From positions 544 through 64,543 of the forward strand of contig CALBRZ010000083.1 in NCBI GenBank assembly GCA_937927735.1: a stretch of 64,000 bases of DNA, read 5' to 3'. Source of the stretch: an uncultured Planctomycetales bacterium (lineage in GTDB: Bacteria > Planctomycetota > Planctomycetia > Pirellulales > S012-138). Under the pieces are notes generated by a model, which saw only the letters and a list, made by a program, of their open reading frames with translations, did not search any database and had not been told where the DNA came from. Made by a program: the position numbers and the translations under genes. Positions 17,742 to 56,578 of the stretch are shown here, piece after piece; the stretch's first letter is position 1, and the number at the start of each line of letters is the position of its first letter.

Positions 17742-18169
17742 AAGCACCTGCGATGGCAAAGGTCAGCGGGACCGTTCTGATAGCGGTCTGCCTGGTCGCC
17801 TTCGGCGGCTGTGGCGAGACGTCGACGGCGTGCCGGGTGACCGGCCAGGTTTTCATCAATCAGAAGCCGGCCGCGGGCGTGTACGTGCTGTTGCAGCCGG
17901 CCGAGCCGGCCGACGACAAAGCCGCCGGACAGGCCGCTGGCGCGGCGCGTACCGGTGACGACGGCACGTTCACGCTGGTCGTGCCTGAACCCGGCCAGTA
18001 CGTCGTCAATGCCTTCTGGCCCGAGGTGATCACAACATCAGACGAAGTCGTCGAAGGCGAGGACCGGTTCCGCGGCCGTTACCGCGACCCCAAGCGGCCC
18101 ATTGCGACGGTGCAGATCACCGCGCCTGAGCTGACGTTGCCGCCGATCGAATTGACCTTCCGCAAGTAG
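17738..18169 (+). CDS. small lipoprotein, carboxypeptidase-regulatory-like beta-sandwich (putative)
   Basis: The ATG overlaps the upstream stop (ATGA at 17738-17741). Lipobox VAFGGC. CRVTGQVF...DDGTFTLVVPEPGQYVV pattern. Confidence 0.7.
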   Translation: MKAPAMAKVSGTVLIAVCLVAFGGCGETSTACRVTGQVFINQKPAAGVYVLLQPAEPADDKAAGQAAGAARTGDDGTFTLVVPEPGQYVVNAFWPEVITTSDEVVEGEDRFRGRYRDPKRPIATVQITAPELTLPPIELTFRK

Positions 18170-18269
18170 ACGCTCGAGGCCGCTATGGGCCTGCTCGTTG
18201 AGCCAATCCCACGTTAGCCCCCCCCTGTTGAATCATTCTGGCATCGTTCGAAACCTGAAAGTGATCGCA

Positions 18270-20357: not shown

Positions 20358-20421
20358 CGGCCGCGGTGAATCCTAGGCGGCGGTCAGCGATGCGCCGCCT
20401 GATGCAGCAACTGCGGCGACC

Positions 20422-32016: not shown

Positions 32017-32484
32017 GCGCTACATTCCTTCAACTACAAAGGCACACCGGCTATGTCCAACAGGCAAACGACCGCCTGCCGGCGTCCGGCGTTCAAATAG
32101 TACCACCGGCCTGAACCACACCGCCCGCACGGCGATCACCACACAGTTTGGAAGGTTGGCCCGGACAGAACCCGGGGCGCAATGCGGACGAGCTTTCGCT
32201 GGGCCGATCAGCGAAAGAGTAGAAATGCTATCAGGTATAGGAGTTACCGTCAATCGGTGTATGGCGGCGGGCGACTGTAGCCCGGAGCCCACCGCTCGGA
32301 AAATTGGCGCTAACCGCTGCGACGTGATCCCCCACACGGCGTGAGGCGGGTCGCCCCTCGTCACGGCCAGAAACATCCATTGCCGTTAATGGATTCGGCA
32401 CGCCCAGCTTGGGCCCGCCGCGACACTGGGGGCGGGGGCAAACGGCTGGGCGGCCGTCCCAGGAAGGGAGGAGCCAGCGGGCGT

Positions 32485-33561
32485 CTAGTTGATCGAAGGC
32501 CGCGGGCCGGCGTCGTCCGTCGGCATGAAGAAGTCCTGGAAGTCGGTCACCGTTTCGGCGGTGCCTTCCATGTCGAATTCGTCGGAGATCAGGTTGCCGA
32601 TGTAGCCCTGCATCAGCCGTCGCCCCTCCTCGGTGGCGTGGTGGGTGGCCACCTCGCTGGCGAAGTTGATCAGGTCGTATACGCGGGCCCGGCTGGGCAG
32701 CACCCGCTGCCGCTTGACGCTCAGCGCGTCGAGATTGGCCAGGCCATAGATCTCGTGCAGGTTGCCGGTCACCCGGTTCAGGTCGCGCAACACCTGTTCG
32801 TGGGCGATACCGCCCCGGCTGTGGGCTTTGGTCAGCGCCTTGTACAGCTCATGGCATTCGTTCACCGATGCCCACGACTGCTGGGCACTAGTGAACCGTT
32901 GCCGCAGGGCCGCATAGCCGTCGCCATTGTCGAAGCTCTCCAGTGCCCGGCTAAGGCTGTGCGTTACATCCTTGCCCAGGCTGATGTCGCTGCGGAACGC
33001 CCGGCTGTAGCCGATAGCGCCGTTGGAACAAATGGTTCGCAGAAACGACAGATAAATCTTGGGCTGGCTGAACCCGTCGATCGGCGTTTCCATCACGAAG
33101 CGGTGCTGGAACGCGTCGCCCGCGATGGTGATCGTCTTGTCACCGGTTCGCGGCACATGGGTGCTGCTCACCACGCCGTCGTGGTAGCCGATGTCGGTGC
33201 CGCCGTAGCGGCTGGCCAGGTCATGGATCTCGCCGTAATTGATGATGGGCCGGTTGGGATTGCTCACGGCCAGCAGCCTCGCGCCGCGGCTGCCGCTCTG
33301 CTCGATGCAGTAACGCACCAGGTCATCCTGGGCCACGTGCGAAATCCGCTCGAACACCTCCAGGGGATCGAAGTACCGGAACACCGTGTCGGAAATGCCA
33401 AACCGCATGAAGAACGACGTCCAGAACCGCTGGGTGGGTGCCACCAGGTGACCGTCGACTTCCATCAGGCGAATGTGCAGCCGGCCGTTGGACGAACGCT
33501 GCTGGTGGATCACTCGAAACTGCTGCACGCGGGCGTAGCCGGTTTGAAACGTGTACTGCAT
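32485..33561 (-). CDS. DUF932-like protein (phage/plasmid-associated family), function unknown
   Basis: Start re-called at MQYTFQTGYARV (ATG at 33561); the listed upstream part of the ORF is Arg/Pro-rich shadow. The core METPIDGFSQPKIYLSFLRTICSNGAIG resembles the DUF932 xSxDGS...RxVCxNG pattern by eye. Confidence 0.65.
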   Translation of the reverse strand: MQYTFQTGYARVQQFRVIHQQRSSNGRLHIRLMEVDGHLVAPTQRFWTSFFMRFGISDTVFRYFDPLEVFERISHVAQDDLVRYCIEQSGSRGARLLAVSNPNRPIINYGEIHDLASRYGGTDIGYHDGVVSSTHVPRTGDKTITIAGDAFQHRFVMETPIDGFSQPKIYLSFLRTICSNGAIGYSRAFRSDISLGKDVTHSLSRALESFDNGDGYAALRQRFTSAQQSWASVNECHELYKALTKAHSRGGIAHEQVLRDLNRVTGNLHEIYGLANLDALSVKRQRVLPSRARVYDLINFASEVATHHATEEGRRLMQGYIGNLISDEFDMEGTAETVTDFQDFFMPTDDAGPRPSIN

Positions 33562-33626
33562 GGCTGAGTCTTCAGGCTTGGGGGAGCGGGAGTTTCTTGG
33601 GGCGACCGGGGCGGTGACGCGCGGCG

Positions 33627-34826
33627 TCAGTCCCAGTCGCGCTGCTGGGTCCAAAAGTCGCGGGTGCGGTGCTGGGCGACGAGCTGCGGAAGTTCGGCCT
33701 GGCTGCGGGCGATGGCCGCGCGGCTGCGCTGGGTAATCGCCGCGATCCGCTGGTTCACCCGGAGGGTACGCCAGGTGCCGTCGAGCCAGATGTACTGCTC
33801 GTCGGCCATCGCCGTCTTGAGGAACGGGTGCCGCGTCTGCTTGCACTGCACGATCTGCTTGAACGGGATCCGGGGATGCTTGCGAAATACGCGGCCGCCC
33901 ATCTGAATGGTGCAACCCTTGCCCGACGGGCGGCAGAACACGGTCTTGAGCGTGGGGCAGTCGAAGCCTTCGGTGAGGATCGCCATGTTCAACAGCACGT
34001 CGATCCGGCCCTCGGCGAAGTCGTCCAGCTGCCGCTGCCGGTCGGTTTGGGCGGTGACCACCTCGGCCCGGATGCCGGCGGCCGTAAGGAGTTCGTGGCA
34101 CTGCTGACACTGCTGGAGCCGGTGGAAGAAGATCAGGGTTTTCCCCCACCGCTGCGGCTCGCGAAGGAAGTGCTCGGCCACGCTCTCGGGCGTGTAACGC
34201 TCAATGGTGTAATGGTGGTACCGGCTGAGGTAGCCATCTTGAATGAGCTGATGGATGCCCGCGTCTTTAATTACCTGGTCGAAGCACAGCTTGATCCGAT
34301 CGGTGCGAAACGGCGTGGCGGTCAGCCCTAGCACGTGCCGTGGCCGGATCACGCTGTGCAGGTTGGCCATGCTCATGGCGGCGTCGTGCTGGGCTTCGTC
34401 GACGACCAGCATGTCGACGGCGGGTGGGTTCTTGTCGAACATGGAGATGAACTCCAGGTCGACGTTGAAACCGCGGGCCTGGTTTTCGGCCTCGGCCTGG
34501 GCCAGCAGGTTCCGCCGCATGGACACCCAGCCGATGCGGTAGCCGTGCTTTTGCTGCATCTGCCGGGCGATGGCCAGGCCCATCACCGTCTTGCCGCTGC
34601 CGGTGGGGCTCTCGACCATGACCGAATGGGCGGCGGGTTCCAGGTCGCCGGCCCGATTGCGGTACTGGCCGTGGAACATCTCCAGGGCCTGATGGATAAT
34701 CCGCAATTGATACGGCCGAGCTTCCACGGCGGCATCGGCCAGCAGCGGGCGGCCTTCCCAATGGCTGGGAGGTTCCGGGACAGCTTGGGCCGCGGGGGCG
34801 TGGTTGACTGCCGGCGTGAGCGTCAT
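33627..34826 (-). CDS. superfamily 2 (DEAD/DEAH, ResIII-like) helicase
   Basis: Start re-called at MTLTPAVNH. Motifs: RPYQ (Q-like), I SPTGSGKT, II VVDEAQH, III LTATP, V LTEGFDCP, VI QMGGRVFR. 399 aa, with no accessory domain visible. Confidence 0.85.
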   Translation of the reverse strand: MTLTPAVNHAPAAQAVPEPPSHWEGRPLLADAAVEARPYQLRIIHQALEMFHGQYRNRAGDLEPAAHSVMVESPTGSGKTVMGLAIARQMQQKHGYRIGWVSMRRNLLAQAEAENQARGFNVDLEFISMFDKNPPAVDMLVVDEAQHDAAMSMANLHSVIRPRHVLGLTATPFRTDRIKLCFDQVIKDAGIHQLIQDGYLSRYHHYTIERYTPESVAEHFLREPQRWGKTLIFFHRLQQCQQCHELLTAAGIRAEVVTAQTDRQRQLDDFAEGRIDVLLNMAILTEGFDCPTLKTVFCRPSGKGCTIQMGGRVFRKHPRIPFKQIVQCKQTRHPFLKTAMADEQYIWLDGTWRTLRVNQRIAAITQRSRAAIARSQAELPQLVAQHRTRDFWTQQRDWD

Positions 34827-35985: not shown

Positions 35986-36939
35986 CTAGCGAGCGATGTA
36001 CAGCGTCGGGTCGTCGATGATCCACGGCGTGGACCAGGTGCGGCCGTCGTCCGGGCTGCAGACGTTGAAGAAGAACGTCTCGAACGTCTCACACTTGGCG
36101 CCGTAGCAATACATCGAGGCCAGGTGATCTTCAGGCCGCAGGTCTTCCACGCCGGGGCGAGCATAGTAGTGCACCATACCATCGGGCGTGAACGACATGC
36201 CCAGCGTCCACCAGCCGCTGCCGGGAATATCCGGTCCGCGGAAGTCCTGGCCACGCTGGTTGGCACGCAGGATGAAGTACGCCGAGTCTTCCTTGTGCCG
36301 GCCGTCGTGCTTGCTGTTGAAGTGGATGAAGAAGCCGGGCCAGTACGGTTCGACATCGGTGGTCGTCTTCGTCACGCCGAAGAAGCCCACGATGCCGCCG
36401 GCCGTTTCGGTCTTGGTGCGAGGGCCGGAGCAGCCGGCGCGCACGCCGAACGTGATACCGGTGCGCTTCTCAAAGTCTTCAAAAGGGGGCACGAACACCC
36501 GCACCACAAAGCTCGGCATCCGCGATACAGGGATGGGGCGGCCGATCACCGCCAGCAGGTCATCCTGTTGTAGCTTGTTGCTTCGCGTGCCTGGCACGCC
36601 CGTATCGCGCGACATAATCAGCAGTGAGCCTTTGCTGCCGGGGAGCCCGCCGACGGGCGTTTCCACCCGGCGCACGTGGTCCGGGGTGCCGCGGAGGGCG
36701 CTCTCCGCCCAGCGGCGGTTGGTGGAGTAGGCACCAGGCAGGCGCTTTTCCTCGTCGATCTCCTCGCTGGCCTTGGGCAGGTTGTACACGTACGACCAGT
36801 TAGGGTCTTCAAAATCGTCGCCGGCGTTCTCGACCTTCTTGCCGGTACCCGGCACCAGTTGGGCCTGGGCGACCGTGGGAATCATCATTAGCACCGCGGC
36901 GAGTACCAGCGGCCAAGGCAACAAGCGGTAAATGCGCAT
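35986..36939 (-). CDS. secreted hypothetical protein
   Basis: Start re-called at MRIYRLLPWPLVLAAVLMMIPTVAQAQ (signal peptide), with GGGAGG upstream. 317 aa. No motif recognised. Confidence 0.7.
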   Translation of the reverse strand: MRIYRLLPWPLVLAAVLMMIPTVAQAQLVPGTGKKVENAGDDFEDPNWSYVYNLPKASEEIDEEKRLPGAYSTNRRWAESALRGTPDHVRRVETPVGGLPGSKGSLLIMSRDTGVPGTRSNKLQQDDLLAVIGRPIPVSRMPSFVVRVFVPPFEDFEKRTGITFGVRAGCSGPRTKTETAGGIVGFFGVTKTTTDVEPYWPGFFIHFNSKHDGRHKEDSAYFILRANQRGQDFRGPDIPGSGWWTLGMSFTPDGMVHYYARPGVEDLRPEDHLASMYCYGAKCETFETFFFNVCSPDDGRTWSTPWIIDDPTLYIAR

Positions 36940-37332
36940 GAACGAGCCTCCCTGCTCACGAGCGAGTGATCGTATTGTGTGGCAAATGTGCGGAACGCCT
37001 GTTTGCGGGCGTGCGCGGCACGGTCGACGGCGGCGCGGCGTGGTTATGCGAGGTGGGATCAGCATGTGCTGGTGGCAGTGCCAGGCCAGCACTTGAATGT
37101 TGTGACGCGCGCCACTACGGGTGGAGTTGCCCCTAGAACCAATATCGTCGGCACCATCGGTTCCAATCGGTCCGGCAAGGCAGCCAAGTCCATGAAATCG
37201 GGGGAGAAGAGCCGGACCCGAGCCCGGGGACTAAGCCGCCGCGACAGCGTGTCGTAGCACCTTCAGATGAGGGGCGGACGTAAACCGCCGGCTCAAATAC
37301 TGCACATGGCAATAGATGTAGGGCCCGGCCAC

Positions 37333-38046: not shown

Positions 38047-38757
38047 ATGGAATACCGGCTAATTCATCGCGCCCTGTGCGTCGTTTGCGGATGCCTGGTG
38101 GCGCTGGGCAGCAGCGAAGCCCTGGCCCAGTTCCAGTCGTCGAACCTCAGCAGCCAGGGCCGCACCAGTACCGGTACCTTTGGTAACCGCACCGTCGGTG
38201 CGGCCGGCGGCTTGTCGGCCCGGTCGGGCACGATGTTCGGCGGAGGTGGCGCCGGTGGCTCGGTGGCCGGAACCACGCAGCAGAATCAGCAGGTTGGCAT
38301 GATCGAAGGCAGCGAACGCTTCCTCCGTGCCAACCGCCAGGGCCAGTTCGTCGGTGCCGACACGGCCGATACGCGGCAGATTGGTTCGTTCGGCCAGGCG
38401 GTGAGCAACTTCATCCAGAGCCCGAACTTCCGCAACAATCGCGACGCCAACCAGCAGCTCACCACGCAGACGCGAACGCGGCCCCCTTATCGCACCACGC
38501 TGCGGGTTGGCTTCGATTACGTGGCTCCGGAGCCGAATGCGCTCTCGGCTCAACTTACGAACCAGTTGCGGCGCGCGAGGCTGGGCCCGTTACAAAGTTC
38601 CGTTGTGGTGGAGGTTCAAGGCCATACTGCCATTTTACGTGGTCAGGTAGCCACGGCCCATGCACGCGCTCTAGCGGAGCAATTGGTGCTCCTAGAACCC
38701 GGGATTGAGCAGGTCGATAACCAACTGGAGGTTGCTGAGCCTGCCCCGCAACAGTAG
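38047..38757 (+). CDS. secreted BON-domain protein
   Basis: Signal peptide MEYRLIHRALCVVCGCLVALGSSEALAQ, a Gly/Gln-rich middle region, and a C-terminal BON-like domain VVVEVQGHTAILRGQVATAHARALAEQLVLLEPGIEQVDNQLEV. Confidence 0.8.
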   Translation: MEYRLIHRALCVVCGCLVALGSSEALAQFQSSNLSSQGRTSTGTFGNRTVGAAGGLSARSGTMFGGGGAGGSVAGTTQQNQQVGMIEGSERFLRANRQGQFVGADTADTRQIGSFGQAVSNFIQSPNFRNNRDANQQLTTQTRTRPPYRTTLRVGFDYVAPEPNALSAQLTNQLRRARLGPLQSSVVVEVQGHTAILRGQVATAHARALAEQLVLLEPGIEQVDNQLEVAEPAPQQ

Positions 38758-39913
38758 CCGTCGGATCCAGCGGCATCAAACCCGGTGCGTACTGGGCACC
38801 GGCATTGACCTGCGGCATCGCAGCCGCCGCACCCGCCGTCGGCGGCAAGGCCTCGGTGCCGACGCCCGCCCGATAGGCCGGCTGAGCCTGACCCGGATAC
38901 TGCGGATTAGGCCGAGACCGGAACTGCGGATACGCTTGGTTTCGTCCGCCATTGGTCGCCGGCGGCAGCTGCATCGCACCGGCCGGCATCACGTTGCCTT
39001 GAGCGGCGTTCTCAGCCGGGGCCATGTAATAGGCCTGCGAGGCATCGGTCTGCGGCGCGACCATCGCACCTTGCGGCACGACCATCTGGTAGTCGGCCTG
39101 CGTTGCATAGCCACCATACGTGCCAGCGGCAGGCTGCACCGGTTGCGGCGTCGACGTCCGCCAGGTCGGCATGTTGCCCGCGTTGAACCGCTGCGGCAAA
39201 TCGATGGTCGAGGTCTTCATCCGCGGCCGGTTAGCCGGCTGCAAATCCAGCTGCTGGCCGGGGTAGGCTTTGAGCGGTTCGTCGTACGAAACCAGTTGGC
39301 CTTCCCGGTTCTCGCCCTTTTCGCCGTTTTCCGGCTTCTTGGCGAGTAGTTCTTCGTCGGTGGCTTCCGGCTTGTAGCGGTACTTCATCTTCTCGGCCAG
39401 CGTGGCTTCACGCCCCGGCAGCGTGTGGTGCGTGATTTCGCTGACGATGGTGGTGCCACCGGTCAGCGGCGTGAACCGGGCCACCAGCGAGATCTCCAGC
39501 TCGGGGCCGCCCGCCTCGTCCCACGGCAGCCAGAAGCTGTACGAGTGGCCCAGCGGCTTCTTGGGGCTGTAGTGCTTCTCGAACTGCTCCGGCGTGAAGA
39601 CGTACTTGCGGTCGGGCCGCGTGTCGGTCTTCTTGCGGCCGTCTTCGACAAACGCATACACTTCCAGCCGGCCCTTGGCTTTGATGGGCTTCTCACCGCC
39701 GGCGTAGATGAACACTCGGCCGCCGAAACCGCGGATCGGCGGTTTCTCAGGCTGGTGCAACACCGTATCTTGCCACACGGCGACGATCCGCAGGTTGCCG
39801 CTGAACTCCCCGTCCTTGCCGGCACCCCAGGGGATGTTCTTGCTCATATCAAACTTGGCACAGCCGCTGCCCAGCATCAGCAGCGCCAAGCTCAGGTGTA
39901 ACGCCGTACGCAT
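38555..39913 (-). CDS. lipoprotein with a Pro/Gln/Ala-rich C-terminal half, immediately downstream of the secretin
   Basis: Start re-called at MRTALHLSLALLMLGSGC (lipobox). Structured N-terminal ~190 aa, then low complexity. The 3' end overlaps the BON gene by 203 nt. Confidence 0.7.
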   Translation of the reverse strand: MRTALHLSLALLMLGSGCAKFDMSKNIPWGAGKDGEFSGNLRIVAVWQDTVLHQPEKPPIRGFGGRVFIYAGGEKPIKAKGRLEVYAFVEDGRKKTDTRPDRKYVFTPEQFEKHYSPKKPLGHSYSFWLPWDEAGGPELEISLVARFTPLTGGTTIVSEITHHTLPGREATLAEKMKYRYKPEATDEELLAKKPENGEKGENREGQLVSYDEPLKAYPGQQLDLQPANRPRMKTSTIDLPQRFNAGNMPTWRTSTPQPVQPAAGTYGGYATQADYQMVVPQGAMVAPQTDASQAYYMAPAENAAQGNVMPAGAMQLPPATNGGRNQAYPQFRSRPNPQYPGQAQPAYRAGVGTEALPPTAGAAAAMPQVNAGAQYAPGLMPLDPTATVAGQAQQPPVGYRPAQSRVLGAPIAPLERVHGPWLPDHVKWQYGLEPPPQRNFVTGPASRAATGS

Positions 39914-39987
39914 CGCAGAATCCTTTCTGGCCGTGGTGCGGGTCATCGACGGGGAAGAAGCAGAGCCAAGCAAACTACGACTGACGA

Positions 39988-42900
39988 TCATCGACTGCGT
40001 TGCGGTGTCTCGGTGGCGTTGCGCTTCCAGGGCAACTTGCTCCACCGGGACGGTTCCGCCTGCGGTTGCAGCTGGGCGTACTCAGCACGCTCCGAGGGGC
40101 TGATCAACCGCACCTCCTGAGCAGGCACGGCCGTCTGTCCGGGGCCGGCGCTCACCGGCTGCTGCCAGGCGGCGGGCTGCACGTGCTGGCTGCCCGGTGC
40201 CATGGCGCTGTCGCTCGGTGGCACCAGCTTCAGCGAGTTACCGTCGTCATTGCCTGGGGGACTTGCCCCTTGGCCCGCTCCTCCCGAACGTTGCCCCGGC
40301 GGCGACGGTGCGGGCGGCACCGTCTGTTGCCGTTGCTGCGGTGTCGTCAGCGGCGGCACATTCCGCGGCTGCTGCGACGAGGGCATCGGCGTGGGCAGCA
40401 GTTCCTCCATGTCGGCCGGCTGCGGCTGCAGGTCCGGATCGCCCAGGTTCAGCTTGCCGTCCGGGTTGACGTGCGGATAGATCACCGGGATGCCGGCGTC
40501 TTCCCAGGCGTCGCCGCGACCGCGGAGGCCCGAATCACCGTGCACATCGCGGACATCGGAGAGCACCCAGTGCATCCGGGCCGACTCGATCTGCTTGATC
40601 ATTTCCATGTCCTCCTCGGTGCGGACGACACGCGGCGTCATGATGATCAGCAGTTCGGTGCGCTGTTCCACGTTGGCGTCGTAGCGGAACAGGTGCCCCA
40701 ACACCGGGATCGAGGCCAGCAGCGGCACCCGGCGGTGGGTTTGAGCCCGGGTCTTGGTGATCAGACCGCCCAGCACGATGGTTTGGCCGCTCAAGGCGCT
40801 GACCGTCGATTGGGCCAGCGTGGTGTTGATGCGCGGCGAGCGAATCACGTCGCCGGTGGGCAGCACCGAGACGGGGATACCCTCGGACTCGGGACCGACT
40901 TCGGACTTTTCAACGTCGATTTCCATCACCACCAGGCCATCGGGGCTGATACGCGGCGTGACGCCGAGGATCAAACCGACGTTCTGCTGGGCACCAAGCT
41001 GGTTGGTCTGGATACCGGTCGCCTGGTCAAACGTGGTCGCGGTGATGAGCTGCACCCGCTGGCCCACCTGGATGAAGGCCGGCTGGTTGTCCAAGGTCAT
41101 CACTTGCGGCCGGGCCAGCACGTCCAACCGGCGGCACTCTTGCAGAGCCCGGATCAGGATGCTGATGCTCTCGCTGCTGGCCGACAGCACCAGACCGCCG
41201 TAGCCCAGTTGGCTGTTCACGCGGCCCACCGAAAAGCTGCTCAGCGCCTGGCCGGCCAGCTTGCCCGACGTGGCCCGCGACAAGTCGCTGCCGCTGTTCC
41301 CCAACGGCTGGTTGTTGAACAGGAAGCCAGGCGTGAGGCTGGCACCCTGGATGATCTGGTTGGTGGTGGTCACCACCGTGTTGCCTTGGGGCGTCTGCGT
41401 GCTGTTGGTGGTCGTGATCAGGTCGCCCAGCAGGCTGCGGTCGAACAGGATGGAGTCCTGCAGGCCGAGCTCCACGCCGAACTCGTCGGTGTTGTTCAAC
41501 TGCACTTCGGCGATGAGTACCTGGATCATCACCATCGGGGGCCGGCGGTCCAGCTCGTCGATGATGCGGCGAATCTCGCCGAAGTATCGCGGCGTGGCGG
41601 TTACGATCAGGCTGTTGGTCACCGGCTCGCCGACGACCACCACTTCTTCCTGGATCTGCTGGAACGCACTGCGGACGCCCTGCTCCTGCACGGCCCGCTC
41701 GGCCTGCAGCAACTGGTTGATGCTGTTGGCCACGTCGAGCGCCGGAGCGTTCTTCAGGCGGTATACCTGCGTTTCGCGCTCGCGGACGTCGCTTTCATCG
41801 AGCCGCAGCAAGATGGCTTCGACGATCGTCAGGTCGGCGGCACTACCGGTTGCCAGAATCGAGTTGGTACGGGTATCGACGGCAAACCGCAGCGGCACGA
41901 TCGAGCCGTCGGACTGCACCGAGGCCGCCTGTTGCACGCCGAACTGGCCGCCGGTTGAAGTGGCATTGAACAGCGTGCTGAGCATGTTCACCAGGCTTTC
42001 GGCATCGCCGTTGACGATGGTGAACACCTTGATCTGCGCGGTAGCGCCGGGAATGTTGTCCAGTTGCTCGATCAGGGCTTCGATCAGCGGCATGCTGTCG
42101 GCCGGAGCCCGTACGATCAGCGAGTTCGCCCGGGCGTCGGCGGTCACTTGCACGTCGGTGAGGATGCCGGACCGGAGGATGGTGCGGTCGCGGGCGTCGA
42201 GCGTCATCAGCCGCAGCACGGCCGAACGCTGGACGGCTTGCTGGCCTTGCACCCCCTGCTGCTGCTGCACACCCGGCAACTGCGGTCCGATCTGCTGCTG
42301 ACCCGGAGCCGCCGTGCCGGTGATGGCCGCTTGCAGAACGGCAGCCAGGTCCTCGGCCAGGGCGTTCCGCAACTGGAACACCTTGAGCGACAGTTCCGAG
42401 GGCGAGCTATCGATGTCGATCCGCGACAACAGGTGCGCGATCTCGGCCAGGTCGCGAGGGCTGGCCCGCACGATCAGCGCGTTGGTGCGGTAATCGGCAA
42501 TCACGTTCACCCGCGGGAACAAGCCCGGCAGGTTCTGCTGCTGTTGCCCTTGCTGCTGCGTGCCCGGCCCCGCCGTGGCGCCGTAGAACTGCTGCAAGGT
42601 GGCCGCGGCAGCCTGGGCCGAAGCGTACTTTAGGCGGAACACTTCAAATTGCGACTCGGGGCCCGAGGGCGTATCCAGCCGGCGGATCAGATCCATGGCG
42701 GCTTCCACGCTGGCCGGCGGACCGATCAGCAGCAACGCGTTGGGGTCGACCAGCGGCGTGATGCTCACGCGGCCTTTTCGCCCGGCGTAAACCGAGTCGT
42801 ACAACTGGCGGACGATGGTGGCCAGCGCTTCACCGTTGACGTATTCCAGCGGATGGATACGGATCTCCGGCTCGGTCTCCTGGCTCCGTTCTTCAATCTG

Positions 42901-44499
42901 CTCGATGATGCGGATCAACCGGTCCACGTCTTCCTTGGGACCGCGGAGGATGATCACGCCCAGGTCTTCGAGCACTTCAATCTGCACGGGGCCGACCAGC
43001 CCTTCGGTATCGGTCGGGATGGTCACCTGACCTTGCGCTGGAGCCTGACCGGTTTGTGTCTGACCGGGCAAGGCCTGCCCGGCAGCGGCACCGGCTCCTG
43101 CCGCCGCACCGCCCTGGGGCTGTGCGGGCACCTGTTGTGCCGGTTGCGGCTGATTGTTCTGGGGCTGCTGCTCGCTCGGCGGCTGGAACAGTTGAGCCAC
43201 CAGGTGCGGCGAACGAGTGGCCTGGGCCCGTACGGTTTGACCGCGCTCACGCAGACCACGCAGCCGGGCCTCCTCCAACAGCGAGGCTACTTGATGGACC
43301 TTGCCCGGGGCTGCGGCACCCAGCGGCATCACTTCGATCTTGCGAGCAGCTTGCGGAGCCTGCGGGGCCTCGAGGATGGCCAGCAACCGAGCGCACCGCT
43401 CGGCGGCCGCCGGCGGACCGTGGATCACCACCTGGCCGGTCAGCATATCGAACTCGATCCGCAGCCGCTCCTGGGCCGAGAGGTCGAGCGTATAAACCAC
43501 GACGTCGCGGTTGGTGTTGGCGGCCGCCATGAGCTTGGGGCCGTACAGCCGCTTGAGAGCCTTCTGCACTTCGACCGACGACGTGCGCAGTTGCATGATC
43601 TGGCCCGTGCCGGCCGTGGTCGTCAGCAGGCCGAAGTTAGCACCGCGCGGCGTGGCAGGTGCCGGGCCAAGTTGCTGTGTCTGTTCGCCAGCGGCGGCTT
43701 GCATCGGCTGAGCCGGTTTGCCTTCGACGGCACCGATGAACTTGGCGATCTCGGTCTGCATCGCCGCCGGCGCGACGACCAGCAGTTGTTCGTTGCGGGC
43801 ATCGGTGGCCACGCGGGCACCATACGGTCCAAAGCGATCGCGGATCGCCTGGCTCATCGGCTCCAGTTGCGCGGCGGCAGCCGGGTAGGTCTGGAGCGTG
43901 GGCGGACCAAGCTGGGCCTCGGCTTCGCGATCGATCGACTGCACCACTTCGGCGGCCAGCCGCTGCACGTCGTCGCCGCCCTGCACGATGACGACGTTTT
44001 GCGTGGGATCGATCGCCACGTCGCCCCGCAGCGATGCACTGTTCAACCAGTGGACCACGGCCGGTTGAACATCTTGCGCCCGGGCAAACTTAAGCGAATA
44101 CACACGTGCTTGAGACACCCCGGCGTTTTGCTGGGGCATCGCGGCCGTATTCCCCAATGGTACACCGCCAGCCTGGGCGACATTACCCGCGGGAGCGGTC
44201 GCCGTGGGAGTTACGTGCGCGGCAGGCATGACAGCATTGCCTGCAGGCATCCCCATGCCCGGCGCCATGTGCTGGCCCTGCGGCGCCGATCCCGGCCCAA
44301 GTGGCATGGGCGGCATCGACGGCGCGAACGGATGGGGAGCAGGTAATTGGCCGCCAGGATGTGGGCCAACCGGGACGAAGCCTTGCTGTGCTTGTCCGGC
44401 CGGAAACGGTTCCGCGGCCAGCGATGTCGCTACCAGCGACAACAGCGCGGCGCATCCGCAGAGCGCGCGCTTCGTGGGTCCAAATGTTGGCACGTGCAT
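39988..44499 (-). CDS. giant secretin (GspD/PilQ family outer-membrane channel)
   Basis: Signal peptide after MHVPTFGPTKRALCGCAALLSLVATSLAAEP. At least 6 secretin-N-like modules (for example EVFRLKYASAQAAAATLQQF, KVFTIVNGDAESLVNMLSTLF, QVYRLKNAPALDVANSINQLL). Canonical secretin C-domain: LARPQVMTLDNQPAFIQVGQ...GLILGVTPRISPDGLVVMEI...VPLLASIPVLGHLFR...ELLIIMTPRVV. Confidence 0.9.
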   Translation of the reverse strand: MHVPTFGPTKRALCGCAALLSLVATSLAAEPFPAGQAQQGFVPVGPHPGGQLPAPHPFAPSMPPMPLGPGSAPQGQHMAPGMGMPAGNAVMPAAHVTPTATAPAGNVAQAGGVPLGNTAAMPQQNAGVSQARVYSLKFARAQDVQPAVVHWLNSASLRGDVAIDPTQNVVIVQGGDDVQRLAAEVVQSIDREAEAQLGPPTLQTYPAAAAQLEPMSQAIRDRFGPYGARVATDARNEQLLVVAPAAMQTEIAKFIGAVEGKPAQPMQAAAGEQTQQLGPAPATPRGANFGLLTTTAGTGQIMQLRTSSVEVQKALKRLYGPKLMAAANTNRDVVVYTLDLSAQERLRIEFDMLTGQVVIHGPPAAAERCARLLAILEAPQAPQAARKIEVMPLGAAAPGKVHQVASLLEEARLRGLRERGQTVRAQATRSPHLVAQLFQPPSEQQPQNNQPQPAQQVPAQPQGGAAAGAGAAAGQALPGQTQTGQAPAQGQVTIPTDTEGLVGPVQIEVLEDLGVIILRGPKEDVDRLIRIIEQIEERSQETEPEIRIHPLEYVNGEALATIVRQLYDSVYAGRKGRVSITPLVDPNALLLIGPPASVEAAMDLIRRLDTPSGPESQFEVFRLKYASAQAAAATLQQFYGATAGPGTQQQGQQQQNLPGLFPRVNVIADYRTNALIVRASPRDLAEIAHLLSRIDIDSSPSELSLKVFQLRNALAEDLAAVLQAAITGTAAPGQQQIGPQLPGVQQQQGVQGQQAVQRSAVLRLMTLDARDRTILRSGILTDVQVTADARANSLIVRAPADSMPLIEALIEQLDNIPGATAQIKVFTIVNGDAESLVNMLSTLFNATSTGGQFGVQQAASVQSDGSIVPLRFAVDTRTNSILATGSAADLTIVEAILLRLDESDVRERETQVYRLKNAPALDVANSINQLLQAERAVQEQGVRSAFQQIQEEVVVVGEPVTNSLIVTATPRYFGEIRRIIDELDRRPPMVMIQVLIAEVQLNNTDEFGVELGLQDSILFDRSLLGDLITTTNSTQTPQGNTVVTTTNQIIQGASLTPGFLFNNQPLGNSGSDLSRATSGKLAGQALSSFSVGRVNSQLGYGGLVLSASSESISILIRALQECRRLDVLARPQVMTLDNQPAFIQVGQRVQLITATTFDQATGIQTNQLGAQQNVGLILGVTPRISPDGLVVMEIDVEKSEVGPESEGIPVSVLPTGDVIRSPRINTTLAQSTVSALSGQTIVLGGLITKTRAQTHRRVPLLASIPVLGHLFRYDANVEQRTELLIIMTPRVVRTEEDMEMIKQIESARMHWVLSDVRDVHGDSGLRGRGDAWEDAGIPVIYPHVNPDGKLNLGDPDLQPQPADMEELLPTPMPSSQQPRNVPPLTTPQQRQQTVPPAPSPPGQRSGGAGQGASPPGNDDGNSLKLVPPSDSAMAPGSQHVQPAAWQQPVSAGPGQTAVPAQEVRLISPSERAEYAQLQPQAEPSRWSKLPWKRNATETPQRSR

Positions 44500-44983
44500 T
44501 CGTGATAACTCATGCCTCAGGGCGCCCCCCCTGGAACTGAGTTTACGGACCATGCGGCGCAGCGGCCGCAAAATCCGCGTAGTTCATCAATTCGGCATGT
44601 TGAAACCGTGGCTAGAGAAAAGCCTTGCGGATTTTGCAAACTTTGACGGCACCCGATAGCAGCAAGCGGCCGCTATCAGCGCCAGCTTTTGCCCGGTGGA
44701 GACGCAACGAACCTCGGCTCGCCAGTTCCCGAGGACGTGGGGAGCACGTTGGGCTGAAAAGATTGCAGACGCCAGGTCATGCCAGCACAGTGGCTGAGCA
44801 ACGATCGTTTGCAGCAGCACGACCAGAATTCGCCCAGGATGAGGCAGTTTTCGCCCCGACTGGGTTTGCCTCGCGGCGGCCGTTGGCATATCGTTTGCCG
44901 CTCTTTATGCACTTCGCCCGCATCGCCGCCGCCATTGCTCCTGCTATCGCCGGCATGCGTTCAACACATGCAAGGGGTCACTG

Positions 44984-50839: not shown

Positions 50840-52828
50840 ATGATGAGCAACGAGCGACTTGAAAGTGGTCTGTTGCCAAGCGGAGCACACGACGCGCACG
50901 CTTCGGTCCCCGTTGTTCCCAGCGACGAGCCTGCGCGGTTAGAGCTGTCGGCCGAAGCCATGCGGGCGATGGGCTATCAGGTGATCGATCAACTGGTCGA
51001 ACGCTTTGTGAAGCTGCCCGAGAAGCCGGCCACGCGCATCGTCCCACGGCCGGTCTTGAAGGAGAAACTGTCGGCTCCGCCGCCGGAAGAACCCGAGCCG
51101 TGGGGCCGCATTCTCCAGCAGACCCAAGATGACGTGATGACGGCTGTGGGGCTTACCACGCATCCCCGCTTTGCGTTCGTGCCGAGCCCCAGCAACTTCG
51201 TCAGTGTGATGGCCGATTGCCTGGCGGCTGGCTTCAACATCTTCGGCGGCAACTGGTTGGAGGGGGCCGGCCCCTGCCAGGTGGAACGCACGGTCATCGA
51301 CTGGATGCGCGCCTGGTGCGGCATGCCGGAATCCACCGGTGGCGTGCTGGTTAGCGGTGGCTCACAGGCCAACCTGACGGCGCTGGCGACCGCCCGGCAT
51401 GTGAAGCTCCGCAACGAAGTGTCCCGCGGCGTGGCCTACGGCTCGGACCAGTGCCACTCGTCGCTGCTGCGAGGCTTTCGCGTGCTGGGCTTTTCCCAGG
51501 ATCAGTTCGTCCGGCTTCCGTCCGACGAGCATTTCCGGCTGCCGGTCGAGGCCTTACGCGCCCGAGTGGCGGAAGATCGTGCTCGCGGTTTGCACCCGTT
51601 TTGCGTGGTGGCCAACGCCGGCACAACAAATACCGGTGCGGTTGATCCCCTGGACGAACTGGCCGACTTCTGCCAGCAAGAGGGGCTCTGGCTGCATGCC
51701 GACGGCGCGTACGGCGCCGCGGCCGTTCTTTCGCCAGCCGGCCGCGAGGCCTTGCGAGGCATCGAGCGGGTGGATTCGCTGACCATCGACCCGCACAAAT
51801 GGCTGTTCCAGCCCTACGAGTGCGGCTGCGTGCTGGTCCGCGATTGGCAACACCTGTTCGGGGCGTTTCAGGTCACGGCCGAGTATCTGGCCGATGCCCT
51901 GCGGATCAGCGAGGACGTGAACTTCCAGGACCTGGGCATCCAGCTCACCCGGTCATTCCGCGCCCTGAAGCTGTGGATGTCGATCCGGTTCTTCGGGCTG
52001 GCGGCGTTCCGCGAGGCAATTACCCGGGGCATCGAACTGGCCCAGCAGGCGGAACAGATCGTGCGCGAAACCCAGGGGCTGCATCTGTTCACACCGGCTC
52101 AGTTGGGCATCTTGACCTTTTATTACGCGGAACCGGAGCACGACTTGGCCGCGGCCAATGAGCTGAATCAACGGATTGTGAACCGGGTCTTGGACGAGGC
52201 GTTTGCCACCGTGACGTCGACGATGCTTCGCGACCGCCGCGTTTTGCGGATGTGCATCATCAACCCCCGCACGACGGTGGACGACCTGCGTCAAACTGTC
52301 GCACGTCTGGCACAGTTCGGACGTGAGGAATCCCAGCGGACGAGGGGGGCAGATAGCTCATCTTCCTTGCATTCCGCAAGTTTTCAGCGACTTTCGCTGG
52401 ATGATGACACCTCTTGTTGGACGGAGCGACAGGTGGGGGGCACCTTCGAGCGGTTCGCGTCCCCCGCTGGCTGCGGAATAGCAAGCATCCACGGTCGTTG
52501 CTATCTTGCGATTGCCGTGAGTGCCGCCGTGCGTGGCTTGCCGCGGGCCAGAGACCGTGCCCCGTGCCATGTTCCACCCGAAGGGGTGTGGCAATTTGCC
52601 GCACCCTGCCAGGGGGCTTGTCTGGGGCGCCCCATCGTGTACAAAGGGCGCTTGACACTTGGCCGGGGGGTCTACGAGTCGCCTCGCTTGCAAACTTTCG
52701 TGCAAGCGCAATGGTTTCTGGTCTTATCGGGCGCGTGCGTTGTCGAGTGCAGGTCTGATGTTGCGCTCGCTTTTCAGCGAGCGACCAAGCACCAAGAGTC
52801 GACACAATGGCCGAGAAAAAGAAGTTGA
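50840..52828 (+). CDS. PLP-dependent group II (aromatic-amino-acid-type) decarboxylase with an unexplained C-terminal extension
   Basis: Start re-called at MMSNERLE. Motifs HPRFFAF-like HPRFAFVPSP, SGGSQANL and DPHKWLFQPYECG (PLP Lys). The recognisable domain ends near 52330, but the frame stays open to 52828. Confidence 0.85.
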   Translation: MMSNERLESGLLPSGAHDAHASVPVVPSDEPARLELSAEAMRAMGYQVIDQLVERFVKLPEKPATRIVPRPVLKEKLSAPPPEEPEPWGRILQQTQDDVMTAVGLTTHPRFAFVPSPSNFVSVMADCLAAGFNIFGGNWLEGAGPCQVERTVIDWMRAWCGMPESTGGVLVSGGSQANLTALATARHVKLRNEVSRGVAYGSDQCHSSLLRGFRVLGFSQDQFVRLPSDEHFRLPVEALRARVAEDRARGLHPFCVVANAGTTNTGAVDPLDELADFCQQEGLWLHADGAYGAAAVLSPAGREALRGIERVDSLTIDPHKWLFQPYECGCVLVRDWQHLFGAFQVTAEYLADALRISEDVNFQDLGIQLTRSFRALKLWMSIRFFGLAAFREAITRGIELAQQAEQIVRETQGLHLFTPAQLGILTFYYAEPEHDLAAANELNQRIVNRVLDEAFATVTSTMLRDRRVLRMCIINPRTTVDDLRQTVARLAQFGREESQRTRGADSSSSLHSASFQRLSLDDDTSCWTERQVGGTFERFASPAGCGIASIHGRCYLAIAVSAAVRGLPRARDRAPCHVPPEGVWQFAAPCQGACLGRPIVYKGRLTLGRGVYESPRLQTFVQAQWFLVLSGACVVECRSDVALAFQRATKHQESTQWPRKRS

Positions 52829-54057
52829 CCACTGCCGAGATCCTGGCGGCCGCGCGCAAGCTGGACTCTAAGGGGTCGCAGGGGTCAGAAACAACGCCCC
52901 CCGAATCTCCGCCACCTTCTCCCCCGACGGAAGCTGCGGCCAGTTCTTCCTCCGGTGAGTCTACCCCTGCAGCGGCCGATGCTCCCCAGCCGGCTGCCAC
53001 GCCCAGCTCCAGTGGCGGAAAACTCACTACGGCCGAGATTCTGGCCCTGGCCCGAGCCGGCAAAGCCGGCGGTGCCAAGCCGGCGGCAGCGGCCGAGACG
53101 CCTGCCCAGGAGCCGGCAACCCCGGCAAATCCGGCAAATCCGGCGAGTTCATCCGGTGGTCGGCCCAGCGTTCAGGAGATCCTGGCGATGGCCCGGGCCG
53201 GCAAAGGTGGCCAGCAACCTCCTGCCGAGCCGGCGGCCGAGCCGCCCGCTACACAACCCTCTGCGGCCAAGCCAACCGCCGCCAAACCGGAACCGGCAGC
53301 CTCGCAGGCCGAGGAAGTTCCGGCTGGTCCGCCCAAGACGGCAAGCATCCTGGCGGCGGCCCGGGCGGAAAAGAAACGCGGGCCCTTGAGCAAAGCCGAG
53401 GCCGGCTTGCTGCCCGGCCATGATGAATCGCGCATCGAAGAGGCGATTCCGCGTCCGGCCAAGCCGGTCGTGCCGCCTATGCCCGCCAAACCGGCGTATG
53501 CGCAAAAGAAGCCCGAGGGCGCTCAGCCCAAGGTCGACGAAGGCCGCCGCGGCGTGTTGGCGATGCTCAGTGCGATGGTCGGCACCTCGCTGGGGATAGG
53601 CTTTGGCGCGTTGGCCGGCACCGCGGGGTTGTGGTCGCTGGGGCTGGCTCGTTACATGTTCCCCAACATCCTGACGGAGCCGCCCAGCCAGTTTAAGGTG
53701 GGGCAGCCGTCGGACTTTCCGCCGGGTATGGTGGACGAGCGGTTCAAGGCGGCCTTTGGCGTGTGGATCGTCAACGCCGAGTACAACGGCCAGCAGATGA
53801 TCTACGCTTTGAAGACCGTCTGCACGCACCTGGGCTGCACGCCCAACTGGTTGGAAAGCGAGCAGAAGTTCAAATGCCCCTGCCACGGCAGCGGCTTTTA
53901 CATTGATGGGATCAACTTCGAGGGGCCGGCGCCCCGCCCCCTGGAACGGTACGCGATTCGAATCGCCGACGACGGCCAGTTGGAGATCGACAAGAGCCGC
54001 GTCTTCCAGGAAGAAAAGGGCGAGTGGACCAACCCCGACAGCTATGTGATCGTCTGA
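52807..54057 (+). CDS. Rieske [2Fe-2S] subunit of a cytochrome bc-type complex, with a 245-aa N-terminal extension
   Basis: CTHLGC...CPCHGSGF cluster-binding boxes. A twin-arginine EGRRGVL followed by the TM helix AMLSAMVGTSLGIGFGALAG at residues ~247-275. Ala/Pro-rich repeat-bearing N-terminus. Confidence 0.9.
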   Translation: MAEKKKLTTAEILAAARKLDSKGSQGSETTPPESPPPSPPTEAAASSSSGESTPAAADAPQPAATPSSSGGKLTTAEILALARAGKAGGAKPAAAAETPAQEPATPANPANPASSSGGRPSVQEILAMARAGKGGQQPPAEPAAEPPATQPSAAKPTAAKPEPAASQAEEVPAGPPKTASILAAARAEKKRGPLSKAEAGLLPGHDESRIEEAIPRPAKPVVPPMPAKPAYAQKKPEGAQPKVDEGRRGVLAMLSAMVGTSLGIGFGALAGTAGLWSLGLARYMFPNILTEPPSQFKVGQPSDFPPGMVDERFKAAFGVWIVNAEYNGQQMIYALKTVCTHLGCTPNWLESEQKFKCPCHGSGFYIDGINFEGPAPRPLERYAIRIADDGQLEIDKSRVFQEEKGEWTNPDSYVIV

Positions 54058-54250
54058 GGTGGGGGGGCCGCCGGCCTCCGTGCCAGTCAAGCTCGAGCAG
54101 ATCGCGCGAGGTGGTTCGCCGCGTCGAGCTTGCGCCGGCAAGTTGACCGACGGTGGGCCGAAGCGTTGCGATAAACGCCGGCCGGGTCGCGCCGCAGTAC
54201 CGCCCACGCACGACCGTTGACTGAATCCTTCCAATCGTTAGGGAACGCCG

Positions 54251-55027
54251 ATGCCGTCAATTGGCGAAACGGTACGCAACAGCCAGATCTGGAAGAGTAT
54301 CTTCCGTCACCCGATGCCGCTGGATCGGCGCAATCGCATCGTGGTGATGCTGACCAACTTCTTCCTGCACCTGCACCCGGTTTCGATCAAGAAGCAGGGC
54401 ATCGCGCTGAGCTACACCTGGTGCATGGGCGGGGTGACGTTCTTCCTGTTTCTGGTGGAGACCGTCACCGGCGTGCTGCTGATGTTCTATTACCGGCCGA
54501 CGCTCCAATGGGCGTTCACCGATATCCAGGCTTTGCGCGACGTCACCAGCCTGGGCATTCTCCGCGAGCTGCATCGCTGGGGGGCCCATGCCATGGTGAT
54601 TACCGTCTGGTTGCACATGTACCGGGTGTTCTTGACCGGCAGTTACAAACCTCCGCGAGAATTCAACTGGGTCGTGGGGGTGATCCTGTTGTTATTAACG
54701 CTGTTGTTGTCGTTCACCGGCTACTTGCTGCCGTGGGACCAGTTGGCCATATGGGCCATCACGGTGGGCTCCAATATGGCCCGGGCGACTCCCTTCTTAG
54801 GCAGCGAAGGCCCCGGCCAGCAGTTGCTGTCCATCGGCGGCATCGACATGATCACCAGTGCCTCGGACGCGCGGTTCGGCCTCTTGGGGGCACGGTTTGT
54901 CGGTGAAGAAACGCTGAACCGGTTTTACGTGCTGCACTGCATCGCAATTCCCCTGGCGGTGGCGATGCTCTTGGCGATTCACTTTTGGCGAGTGCGGAAG
55001 GACGGCGGGATCAGCGGTCCGCTGTAA
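54251..55027 (+). CDS. cytochrome b6-type subunit (N-terminal four-helix half of cytochrome b)
   Basis: [60 protein letters not shown] and AIWAITVG are classic cyt b/b6 heme-ligand and Qo-region helices. Confidence 0.92.
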
Positions 55028-55165
55028 GGCCCCCCCGGCGAACCTGGGAGGAGTGCAGGCCGCGCGCGGACCGGCCGGGATGGCACGTGCGAAGCGGAAC
55101 GAACTGGGACGTTGCGGCAAGGATGGCCCCTTGGCTAGCCGAGGCGGCCGTTTCCAGCCGGCACA

Positions 55166-56509
55166 ATGGATGAACATATGCATGGCGCGTCGTTAGACTT
55201 CGTCGACAAGGCCTCCTCCTTCCTGGGCCCCTACTACATTACGATGGCCGCGCTCAACGCGGTGGTGGCCGGGGTGCTGCAGTTCCGGTTGCAGCGCAGC
55301 GGCCTGGCCCTGGGCTGCCTGATCGCCACGATCGCCTTTGTCATCCTGGGGGCGTTCGCATGGTCGGGCTCGCTACCTGGGCTGGGGCACAATACCGAGC
55401 ATCTGATCAACTCGCTCTTGAGCGGGAACCGCGGCGCGGTGGTCTACACCGTGGGCACGGCGGTTGGCCTGGCGGTGCTGTATTGGTTCCGCCGCTTCTT
55501 CGTGCAGCCGGTGGTGGCCTACATCGGGTTCAACCTGGTGATGCTGCTGCTGGGGTTGTCGATGACCAACCCCAATTTCTGGGAGATCGTCGCCAAGCCC
55601 GACAACGTACCGATCGTGATGCTCGTGCTGCTGCTGGGCTTTTTCACCTGGTTGGCCACGTGGAAAGCCGTGCAGAACGACGATCGGGCCCGGCAGGGCC
55701 TGCCGCCGCTGGAATCGCTCGATAACGAGAAAGTGCTGGTGTGGCCCGACCTGGTCTACACCGAGCTGATCTGCATGGTGCTGCTGACGGCGCTGCTGTT
55801 GGTTTGGGCCATCGTGCTCAAGGCGCCGCTGGAAGAACCGGCCAGCGCGGTCAAAACGCCTAACCCCTCCAAGGCCCCGTGGTACTTCCTGGGGCTGCAA
55901 GAAATGCTCGTGTACTACGATCCCTGGATGGCCGGCGTGGTGCTGCCCAGCTTGGTGATCGTGGGGTTGATGGCGATTCCCTACCTGGACTTCAACAAGG
56001 AAGGCAACGGCTACTACACGATCGAGAAACGCAAGTTCGCGTACCTGACCTTCCAGATCGGCTTTCTGCTGCTGTGGGTCACGTTGATCGTGCTGGGCAC
56101 CTTCCTGCGAGGGCCCAACTGGAGCTTCTTCGGCCCATTTGAGTACTGGGATCCCCATAAGGTCGAGGCCCAGAACAACGTCAACCTCTCGGACTACTTC
56201 TGGATCAACCTGATGGGGGCCAGCGTGCCGAGGGTGACCAGCGACATGGGCACGGCGGAATCGCTGTGGATGATCCTCAAACGCGAAGGGCTGGGGATCG
56301 TCCTGGTGCTGGGCTACTTCCTGTTCTTGCCGCCCGTGCTGGCGGCCACGGTCCTGCGGCCGTTTTTCATCCGGATGGGCTTCATCCGTTACATGGTGAT
56401 GGCCATTTTGCTGCTGTTCATGGCGGCCCTGCCGATCAAGATGCTGCTCCGCTGGACCTTGAACCTGAAGTACATCGTCAGCATCCCGGAGTACTTTTTC
56501 AACATTTAG
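55166..56509 (+). CDS. cytochrome b C-terminal / subunit IV-like protein, expanded (447 aa, about 10 TM helices)
   Basis: PSKAPWYFLGLQEMLVYY (the PEWYF-type motif of cyt b C-terminal domain/PetD), flanked by extra N- and C-terminal hydrophobic helices. Confidence 0.85.
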   Translation: MDEHMHGASLDFVDKASSFLGPYYITMAALNAVVAGVLQFRLQRSGLALGCLIATIAFVILGAFAWSGSLPGLGHNTEHLINSLLSGNRGAVVYTVGTAVGLAVLYWFRRFFVQPVVAYIGFNLVMLLLGLSMTNPNFWEIVAKPDNVPIVMLVLLLGFFTWLATWKAVQNDDRARQGLPPLESLDNEKVLVWPDLVYTELICMVLLTALLLVWAIVLKAPLEEPASAVKTPNPSKAPWYFLGLQEMLVYYDPWMAGVVLPSLVIVGLMAIPYLDFNKEGNGYYTIEKRKFAYLTFQIGFLLLWVTLIVLGTFLRGPNWSFFGPFEYWDPHKVEAQNNVNLSDYFWINLMGASVPRVTSDMGTAESLWMILKREGLGIVLVLGYFLFLPPVLAATVLRPFFIRMGFIRYMVMAILLLFMAALPIKMLLRWTLNLKYIVSIPEYFFNI

Positions 56510-56578
56510 CCGCGACCCGTTTCGCACACCGGTCGCCGATACCGCTCACAGGCTCCGCGATTGCTCCGGAGAGGGCAA

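Follow-up and report, generated by a model that had tools for sequence, protein, structure and literature searches.

What drives a secretin whose gene stands without any of the genes of a secretion machine? This question is raised by a stretch of 64,000 nucleotides (nt) from an uncultured Planctomycetales bacterium of the Pirellulales (assembly GCA_937927735.1, contig CALBRZ010000083.1, positions 544 to 64,543 of the forward strand), referred to here as the window. The window encodes a giant secretin, a lipoprotein immediately downstream of it and, on the opposite strand, a convergent gene for a secreted protein with a BON domain. We consider it very probable that this triad is the outer-membrane module of the type II secretion system (T2SS) of Pirellulales, with gspE-M encoded elsewhere in the genome. 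The genes of the triad are laid out as follows.

39988 to 44499, minus strand: gspD-type secretin gene, 1503 amino acids (aa) from an ATG at 44499, within an open reading frame (ORF) of 39988-44571
44571, minus strand: alternative TTG start of the secretin, upstream of the ATG, whose product would be 1527 aa
38555 to 39913, minus strand: gene of the secretin-associated lipoprotein, 452 aa, from a family without a database name
38047 to 38757, plus strand: gene of the secreted single-BON-domain protein, 236 aa, convergent with the lipoprotein gene
38555 to 38757, both strands: tail-to-tail coding overlap of the lipoprotein and BON genes, 203 nt

The lipoprotein gene follows the secretin gene on the same strand after a spacing of 74 nt. 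Pfam searches of all ORFs supported by the G+C content of third codon positions (GC3) found no GspE/PilB, GspF/PilC or GspL/M gene and no pseudopilin operon in the 64 kb, and planctomycete GspJ, GspK, GspL and GspM used as tblastn queries had no match in the window. The sole prepilin-type gene encodes a DUF1559/N_methyl protein (16269-17741, plus strand). A sequence-only reading of this locus had described a giant secretin with at least six N-domain-like modules, a canonical C-terminal domain and a Pro/Gln-rich tail, followed by a lipoprotein unlike known pilotins and by a converging BON gene. It had also reported that no ATPase or platform genes lie nearby and that the DUF1559 gene is the only pseudopilin-like one. 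These descriptions were borne out, with the count of N domains now at nine and the lack of ATPase and platform genes extended to the whole window. The convergence of the BON gene stood as well, but the 203-nt overlap with the lipoprotein gene had been missed.

The secretin begins with a signal peptide, MHVPTFGPTKRALCGCAALLSLVATSLAA/EP, and the remainder of the protein is made up of three parts.

41545 to 44109, minus strand: array of nine N-type (beta-alpha-beta-beta-alpha) domains, aa ~131-985, from an iterative self-profile and AlphaFold2
40621 to 41148, minus strand: C-terminal secretin (outer-membrane double-barrel) domain, aa 1118-1293, PF00263
39991 to 40620, minus strand: post-secretin tail, aa 1294-1503, from composition and ortholog alignments

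Nine N-type repeats were found by the iterative self-profile (aa 132-987). An AlphaFold2 model of aa 100-1000 also contained nine beta-alpha-beta-beta-alpha units, with confidence scores (pLDDT) of 70-90, parted by disordered linkers and insertions rich in Gln, Pro, Ala and Gly. Pfam counted seven Secretin_N stretches (E=1e-82). The PF00263 match (E=2e-43) covers model positions 1-169 of 169 and aligns to the GspD structure 6i1x. The tail is 210 aa long, with 15% Pro and 10% Gln, and consists of ~55 conserved residues followed by a variable Pro/Gln-rich stretch that is probably disordered; tblastn alignments of the secretin to its orthologs stop around aa 1346-1460.

Profile and structure comparisons place the window secretin in the GspD type. 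With TIGR02517, the GspD equivalog model of NCBIfam, it scored 395.3 bits against a cut-off of 351.35, a score to which the repeated N domains contribute. The rival NCBIfam models all stayed below their cut-offs: PilQ (TIGR02515) at 210 versus 284.35, SctC at 173 versus 238 and MshL at 145 versus 250. The nearest solved structures are those of T2SS GspD (E~1e-37), with PilQ reaching only ~1e-18. Pfam found no AMIN domain in the secretin, and pilMNOP genes were absent from the window and the related loci. The giant size is found throughout the family, with a median of 1326 aa among 51 complete orthologous ORFs. In two more distant planctomycete T2SS operons the secretin is larger still: one of 2159 aa follows gspE-M in L114:10001-16480, and one of 2320 aa, with an N0 domain, stands ahead of gspE in L115:10001-16963. 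Giant GspD proteins appear to be phylum-wide.

A further likeness to GspD/PulD of known T2SSs (6i1x, 5wq7, 6hcg) is that orthologs of the window secretin are the last gene of gspE-M operons. The window secretin is ~2.3 times longer, has nine N-type domains where those proteins have N0 plus N1-N3, carries a long Pro/Gln-rich C-terminal tail and, like most of its relatives, is unlinked from gspE-M. A comparable lengthening of the periplasmic conduit by extra beta-alpha-beta-beta-alpha ring domains is found in PilQ of Thermus thermophilus, a protein of 757 aa whose six stacked rings are taken to bridge a periplasm of unusual width (PMC5745081). PilQ of Thermus is a secretin of type IV pili and DNA uptake, whereas the window protein is GspD-type and its nine rings are predicted from sequence and model.

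The operon context of the orthologs carries the assignment to the T2SS. A direct homologue search with the secretin was dominated by low-complexity words and gave 14 matches; the N-domain of the lipoprotein and scans of loci were used instead. In loci reached via lipoprotein homologues, the triad forms the 3' end of a T2SS operon. The gene order there is gspE (T2SSE plus MshEN domains), gspF, gspG, pseudopilin genes matching GspI/J/K, a PilM-like gspL, a gspM-like gene, secretin, lipoprotein and convergent BON. This arrangement was seen in L006/L008, L007, L010, L013, L015, L017 and L026, with secretins of 1350-1410 aa. Identities to the window proteins in such operon-embedded loci are 46-48% for the secretin, 43-56% for the lipoprotein and 35-43% for the BON protein. 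The embedded secretins of L006 and L007 (46-48%) are nearer to that of the window than the orphan ortholog in L004 (40%). Because orthologous secretins sit in gspE-M operons, the GspE of a remote operon would be what energises the channel.

The triad is also kept as a unit when it is detached. It stands amid otherwise unrelated genes, without T2SS genes, in L001 (72% identity), L003 (52%) and L004 (40%), and in the complete genome CP043547.1 (Planctomycetales bacterium 10988), where it lies at ~4.55-4.58 Mb, it is likewise remote from gsp genes. A scan of species-representative genomes with a GspM-like query gave 25 loci, including 7 complete embedded operons, 1 more that is cut within the secretin and 8 gspE-M operons without a secretin (L014, L018, L019, L020, L024, L027, L030 and L031). 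In these secretin-less operons, unrelated genes follow gspM and no secretin was found in the ~9-10 kb downstream. GspK is equally similar to the reference in secretin-less and embedded operons, and both were therefore taken to be one and the same system. Metagenomes, scanned with the lipoprotein at the centre of each locus, yielded 80 loci, 18 of them with wide flanks. In these 18, the module is remote from any gsp gene in 11, follows gspM in 3, converges with gsp...L-M-BON in 2 and lies upstream of gspE in 2. The remote layout of the triad is the commonest one.

Since it occupies several positions relative to gspE-M, the set of secretin, lipoprotein and BON is a self-contained module. All 47 loci with at least 1.5 kb of sequence ahead of the lipoprotein gene have the secretin as its direct upstream neighbour, and in 45 of 48 the lipoprotein is followed downstream by a convergent BON gene. 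In the metagenome loci L053 and L075 (~11100-20400), the gsp operon lies on the other strand and has gspL-gspM-BON as its final genes, pointing towards secretin-lipoprotein. The gspE-M transcription unit can therefore have BON as its terminal gene, and the place of BON directly 3' of gspM on the same strand is a further tie to the T2SS. Judged from these gene arrangements, the orphan state is a frequent operon split and not the sign of an autonomous machine. The sequence-only reading had called the secretin an orphan and considered that its energy source could not be told. The first view applies only locally and the second has to be given up, given that related Pirellulales carry the secretin in gspE-M operons, with orthologous triads at their ends, and that the secretin scores as a GspD equivalog. 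Its suggestion that the three genes belong together is strongly supported, the lipoprotein and BON genes being conserved neighbours.

The overlap of the two partner genes raises a separate question, namely whether both strands are truly used as coding sequence. In the window, aa 386-452 of the lipoprotein lie opposite aa 170-236 of the BON protein, with lipoprotein codon position 1 opposite BON position 1, 2 opposite 3 and 3 opposite 2. Stop avoidance in long antiparallel ORFs is widespread, and most such ORFs are not subject to selection at the level of the protein (bioRxiv 10.1101/724807). As long antisense ORFs abound in GC-rich DNA and most have no meaning, the overlap was tested in several ways. 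A passive explanation would be that the lipoprotein ORF runs on into the GC-rich antisense strand of the BON gene until it meets a chance stop, so that its tail has no function.

Across loci, 83 of 87 show the overlap; its median length is 227 nt, and in 79 it reaches 100 nt or more. In the complete genome CP043547.1, an independent gene caller gives a lipoprotein/BON overlap of 137 nt. Overlap length equals 2 modulo 3, which corresponds to one relative frame, in 82 of the 83 loci, and a frame fixed to this degree speaks against passive run-on. Synonymous resampling of the BON codons gave an expected median overlap of 99 nt, compared with the 227 nt observed (Kolmogorov-Smirnov p=9e-12). The lipoprotein frame opposite the BON core is free of stops in 85% of loci versus 38+-5% after synonymous resampling, while the other antisense frames and control regions fit expectation, which also argues against a chance origin of the tail. 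Third-position entropy gave no clear difference between the inside and the outside of the overlap.

Rates of change were compared in eight independent pairs of close relatives, using codons with the same amino acid for the synonymous differences. Outside the overlap, the fraction of synonymous differences was 0.301 in the BON gene and 0.271 in the lipoprotein gene; inside it, the fractions were 0.099 (p=3e-20) and 0.073 (p=3e-23), respectively. Both proteins also differ less in amino acids inside the overlap than outside it. Passive run-on predicts that the lipoprotein would show amino-acid differences at or above the synonymous rate of BON; the observed value is 0.127, below the 0.166 found elsewhere in the lipoprotein. 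Because synonymous change is ~3-fold lower in both frames, we regard purifying selection on both as shown, and this indicates real dual coding.

Some of the results are also what passive run-on would give. The identity of the antisense frame exceeds that after synonymous resampling (0.302 vs 0.222), and this test was treated as weak because single-coding control blocks show a similar, smaller excess. In the BON alignment, the lipoprotein stop does not keep to one position. One close pair, L049/L054, has a substitution pattern expected for BON only, with the lipoprotein frame unconstrained in the overlap; this counts against dual coding there and suggests that certain lineages may have loosened the constraint. 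On the other side is L079:10001-11740, in which a convergent NUDIX hydrolase gene takes the place of BON and the lipoprotein still ends ...RTRTVGKPIERPVRERSPW..., so that the tail motif is kept without the opposing BON gene. With the threefold drop in synonymous change added to this, a functionless run-on tail seems unlikely. In L068 and L111, which have no BON gene, the lipoprotein motif is degenerate and just GPW is left.

When 338 genomes were surveyed, convergent pairs were the only ones to yield candidates for long overlaps that are real (Palleja et al. 2008, PMC2478687). The lipoprotein/BON overlap resembles these in being tail-to-tail and longer than 60 nt, and its backing from comparative data is unusually good. 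It differs in its fixed frame across >80 loci, down to ~35% protein identity, in taking in an entire Pfam domain on one of the strands and in its low synonymous rates in both frames.

The two partner proteins were also examined for their domains. Two conserved features of the lipoprotein stand out.

39404 to 39796, minus strand: beta-sandwich (all-beta) domain of the lipoprotein, aa ~40-170, AlphaFold2 pLDDT >90
38651 to 38716, minus strand: lipoprotein motif conserved near the C terminus, RPAQSRVLGAPIAPLERVHGPW, aa 400-421, antisense to the core of the BON domain

The lipoprotein starts with a signal peptide, MRTALHLSLALLMLGSG-C, with the lipobox ...LMLGSG-C18. In an alignment of 50 sequences, G17 of the lipobox is invariant and C18 nearly so (>=90%). 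The family is large, with 995 clusters at 90% identity, all annotated as 'hypothetical', and 2261 clusters at 50%. Pfam had no match in any of the 50 family members scanned, NCBIfam had none for the window lipoprotein, and the family profile found none among PDB sequences. After the beta-sandwich, AlphaFold2 predicts ~280 disordered residues. Two short motifs are conserved in this part, RMxTTTIxLP and the C-terminal R-x-R-x-L-G-x-P-I-x-R-L-x-R-x-x-x-P-W, and the family profile matches of the lipoprotein reach the C-terminal profile positions. A Foldseek search of the model against the PDB gave generic immunoglobulin-like or beta-sandwich proteins only (E ~1e-3 at best), and neither a pilotin nor PilP was among them. 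The known pilotins (PulS/GspS, AspS, PilF/PilW/Tgl, MxiM and YscW/ExsB) are comparable as small-to-medium lipoproteins encoded beside a secretin. The window lipoprotein differs from them in being a beta-sandwich with a disordered tail that carries conserved linear motifs, and its binding to the secretin is putative.

The BON protein has a Sec signal ending ALA/Q, is rich in Gly and Ser in a region that includes an FGxRxxG motif, and carries its BON domain at the C-terminal end. The domain lies at aa 166-230 (nt 38542-38736) and scored 34.9 bits against a Pfam cut-off of 27, in one stretch only. PF04972 is precomputed in 36 of 38 homologs of the protein. The orthologs inspected mostly have an A-x-A/Q signal of the signal-peptidase-I type and no conserved Cys, and are therefore not lipoproteins. 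Fused 'BON + secretin' architectures are a recognised cluster (PMC7806268), which provides precedent for a BON domain acting with a secretin, here in trans. What the window protein shares with the BON proteins of the cell envelope is a BON domain above the Pfam cut-off, together with a syntenic link to a secretin. In contrast to DolP/OsmY and to the BON-secretin fusions, it is separate, secreted and single-domain, with a Gly-rich N-terminal region; DolP has a dual BON and a lipid anchor, and the window protein has neither.

From synteny and the nature of their domains, we infer that the lipoprotein and the BON protein are accessory factors that place or hold the secretin at the outer membrane. 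For the lipoprotein, the role is read from synteny alone because it has no likeness to known pilotins. Another possible explanation is that the two are general envelope proteins with a homeostatic function like that of DolP or OsmY, merely syntenic with gspD. BON proteins such as DolP do serve overall outer-membrane integrity (PMC7806268), neither protein is linked by sequence or fold to a known partner of secretins, and the distant T2SS operon L114 has neither gene. From the lack of both partners in L114, the pair was dated to the Pirellulales-type lineage. A general envelope function is nevertheless very unlikely, given that the secretin is directly upstream in every locus that could be scored, that the module stays intact while its surroundings and the position of gspE-M change, and that BON directly follows gspM on the same strand in L053 and L075. 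About as likely as not is the more specific proposal that the lipoprotein and its BON partner form a pair of T2SS secretin assembly or anchoring factors of Pirellulales-type planctomycetes that had so far gone unrecognised, with genes in a fixed-frame dual-coding overlap of ~70 codons that is among the best-supported in bacteria.

Taken as the outer-membrane module of a T2SS, the triad would work as follows. The secretin multimer would form the pore in the outer membrane, and the stack of nine N-domain rings may bridge the periplasm to the inner-membrane platform (GspL/GspM). The GspE ATPase would drive a pseudopilus of GspG-K, with the genes of both in a gspEFGHIJKLM operon outside the 64-kb window, and folded proteins already in the periplasm would be pushed out via the channel. 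The lipid-anchored beta-sandwich protein with its motif-bearing tail would most likely help to target, insert or stabilise the secretin in the manner of a pilotin. The periplasmic BON protein would most likely share the task through a membrane-binding role, and convergent overlapping transcription may couple the expression of the two.

Several points weigh against this assignment. It relies on a predicted gspE-M operon beyond the 64 kb seen of this genome, and on a presumed pairing of orphan triads with secretin-less gspE-M operons within single genomes. Pfam found no N0 domain (PF21305) in the window secretin; the first domain in the AlphaFold2 model is a beta-alpha-beta-beta-alpha unit, and PF21305 does match the more distant secretins P0013 and P0014. 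GspC usually docks at the N0 domain, and a gspC gene of its own could not be recognised in any of the related operons. The lipoprotein shares no sequence or fold with any known pilotin class, and 3 of the 48 loci have no nearby BON gene, as confirmed by profile search.

A gene of 303-313 aa is found upstream of embedded secretins (L008:10001-10912, L007:4663-5604 and L005:4667-5608). The N-terminal half of its product is weakly GspM-like (23 bits), and after a Pro-rich linker comes a conserved C-terminal segment of ~70 aa (…WLNVR…LRLHEGDSF.VG…G…RI…VEIE.AGKR…). The GspM-like profile had no match among PDB sequences. Because no separate gspC was recognised, one might speculate that this C-terminal segment supplies a secretin docking function like that of GspC or PilP.

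It is highly improbable that the detached secretin instead serves another or autonomous machine, such as a type IV pilus or fibre pore, a crateriform or uptake channel or a phage-like pore, with the secretin-less gsp operons using some other secretin: the 38 kb and 19 kb of the window on either side of the module contain no T2SS genes, the remote arrangement prevails, N0 was not detected and planctomycete uptake by pili and crateriform structures is without known components (PMC12673574), but the PilQ model fails its cut-off where the GspD model passes, orthologs of equal or higher identity end gspE-M operons with the T2SS-specific GspG/I/J/K, embedded and detached copies share the same lipoprotein and BON partners, and a retraction ATPase or pilin cluster stands beside none of the copies.

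The T2SS reading is of an already known kind, both in the system and in the orphan status, which is an ordinary operon split. What is new is the nine-N-domain architecture as the norm of a lineage, the unannotated two-gene accessory module and the conserved long dual-coding overlap. A search of the literature found no description of planctomycete GspD or T2SS components, nor of a secretin-lipoprotein-BON triad. Planctomycetes release extensive sets of enzymes that degrade polysaccharides and proteins. Automated system finders based on co-localisation would miss or mis-score the secretin, since GspD is usually unlinked. The two unnamed conserved partners are candidates for targeting or stabilising a secretin in an atypical cell envelope. 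The overlap provides an order-wide natural example for testing how long antiparallel dual coding arises and persists. If it is real, it would tie the partners together in inheritance and possibly, through convergent transcription, in expression.

The remainder of the window holds housekeeping and metabolic genes, as judged from GC3-based gene calling with Pfam searches of the supported ORFs. They include rpsB-tsf-pyrH-frr, an S46 peptidase, a YTV-repeat protein, a superoxide dismutase, a cytochrome bc-type cluster and GGDEF/HD-GYP genes. The composition of 64% GC and the YTV and DUF1559 proteins are pointers to Pirellulales-type Planctomycetota. Scans for Rfam families, tRNAs, promoters and terminators were uninformative. 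A stretch of ~1.6 kb between rpsB and a helicase-like gene (32020-33626) is without an ORF of coding-type GC3 signature, and the two long ORFs there, 32341-33567 (plus strand) and 32485-34149 (minus strand), had no Pfam match.

At 4258-8166, a gene for an HD-GYP-type (HD_5) phosphodiesterase is flanked by two genes for GGDEF diguanylate cyclases. The gspE genes of the related operons encode an MshEN-type N-terminal domain, a type of domain that binds cyclic di-GMP (c-di-GMP) in some ATPases.

Beyond the BON gene, at 35986-36942 on the minus strand, lies the gene of a ~318-aa signal-peptide protein for which neither Pfam nor NCBIfam gave a match. No copy of it was found in L003 and L004, the two orphan loci of greater distance that were checked. 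Its counterpart in the closest NCBI relative, L001:17726-18703, is 66% identical and has the same relative position. On the other side of the triad, at 52807-61570 on the plus strand, a cluster for a Rieske protein and a split cytochrome b is followed by a gene for a 1669-aa fusion of multi-haem cytochrome c and PDZ. Of these, the Rieske and cytochrome b genes are kept in L001, where they stand beside the triad.

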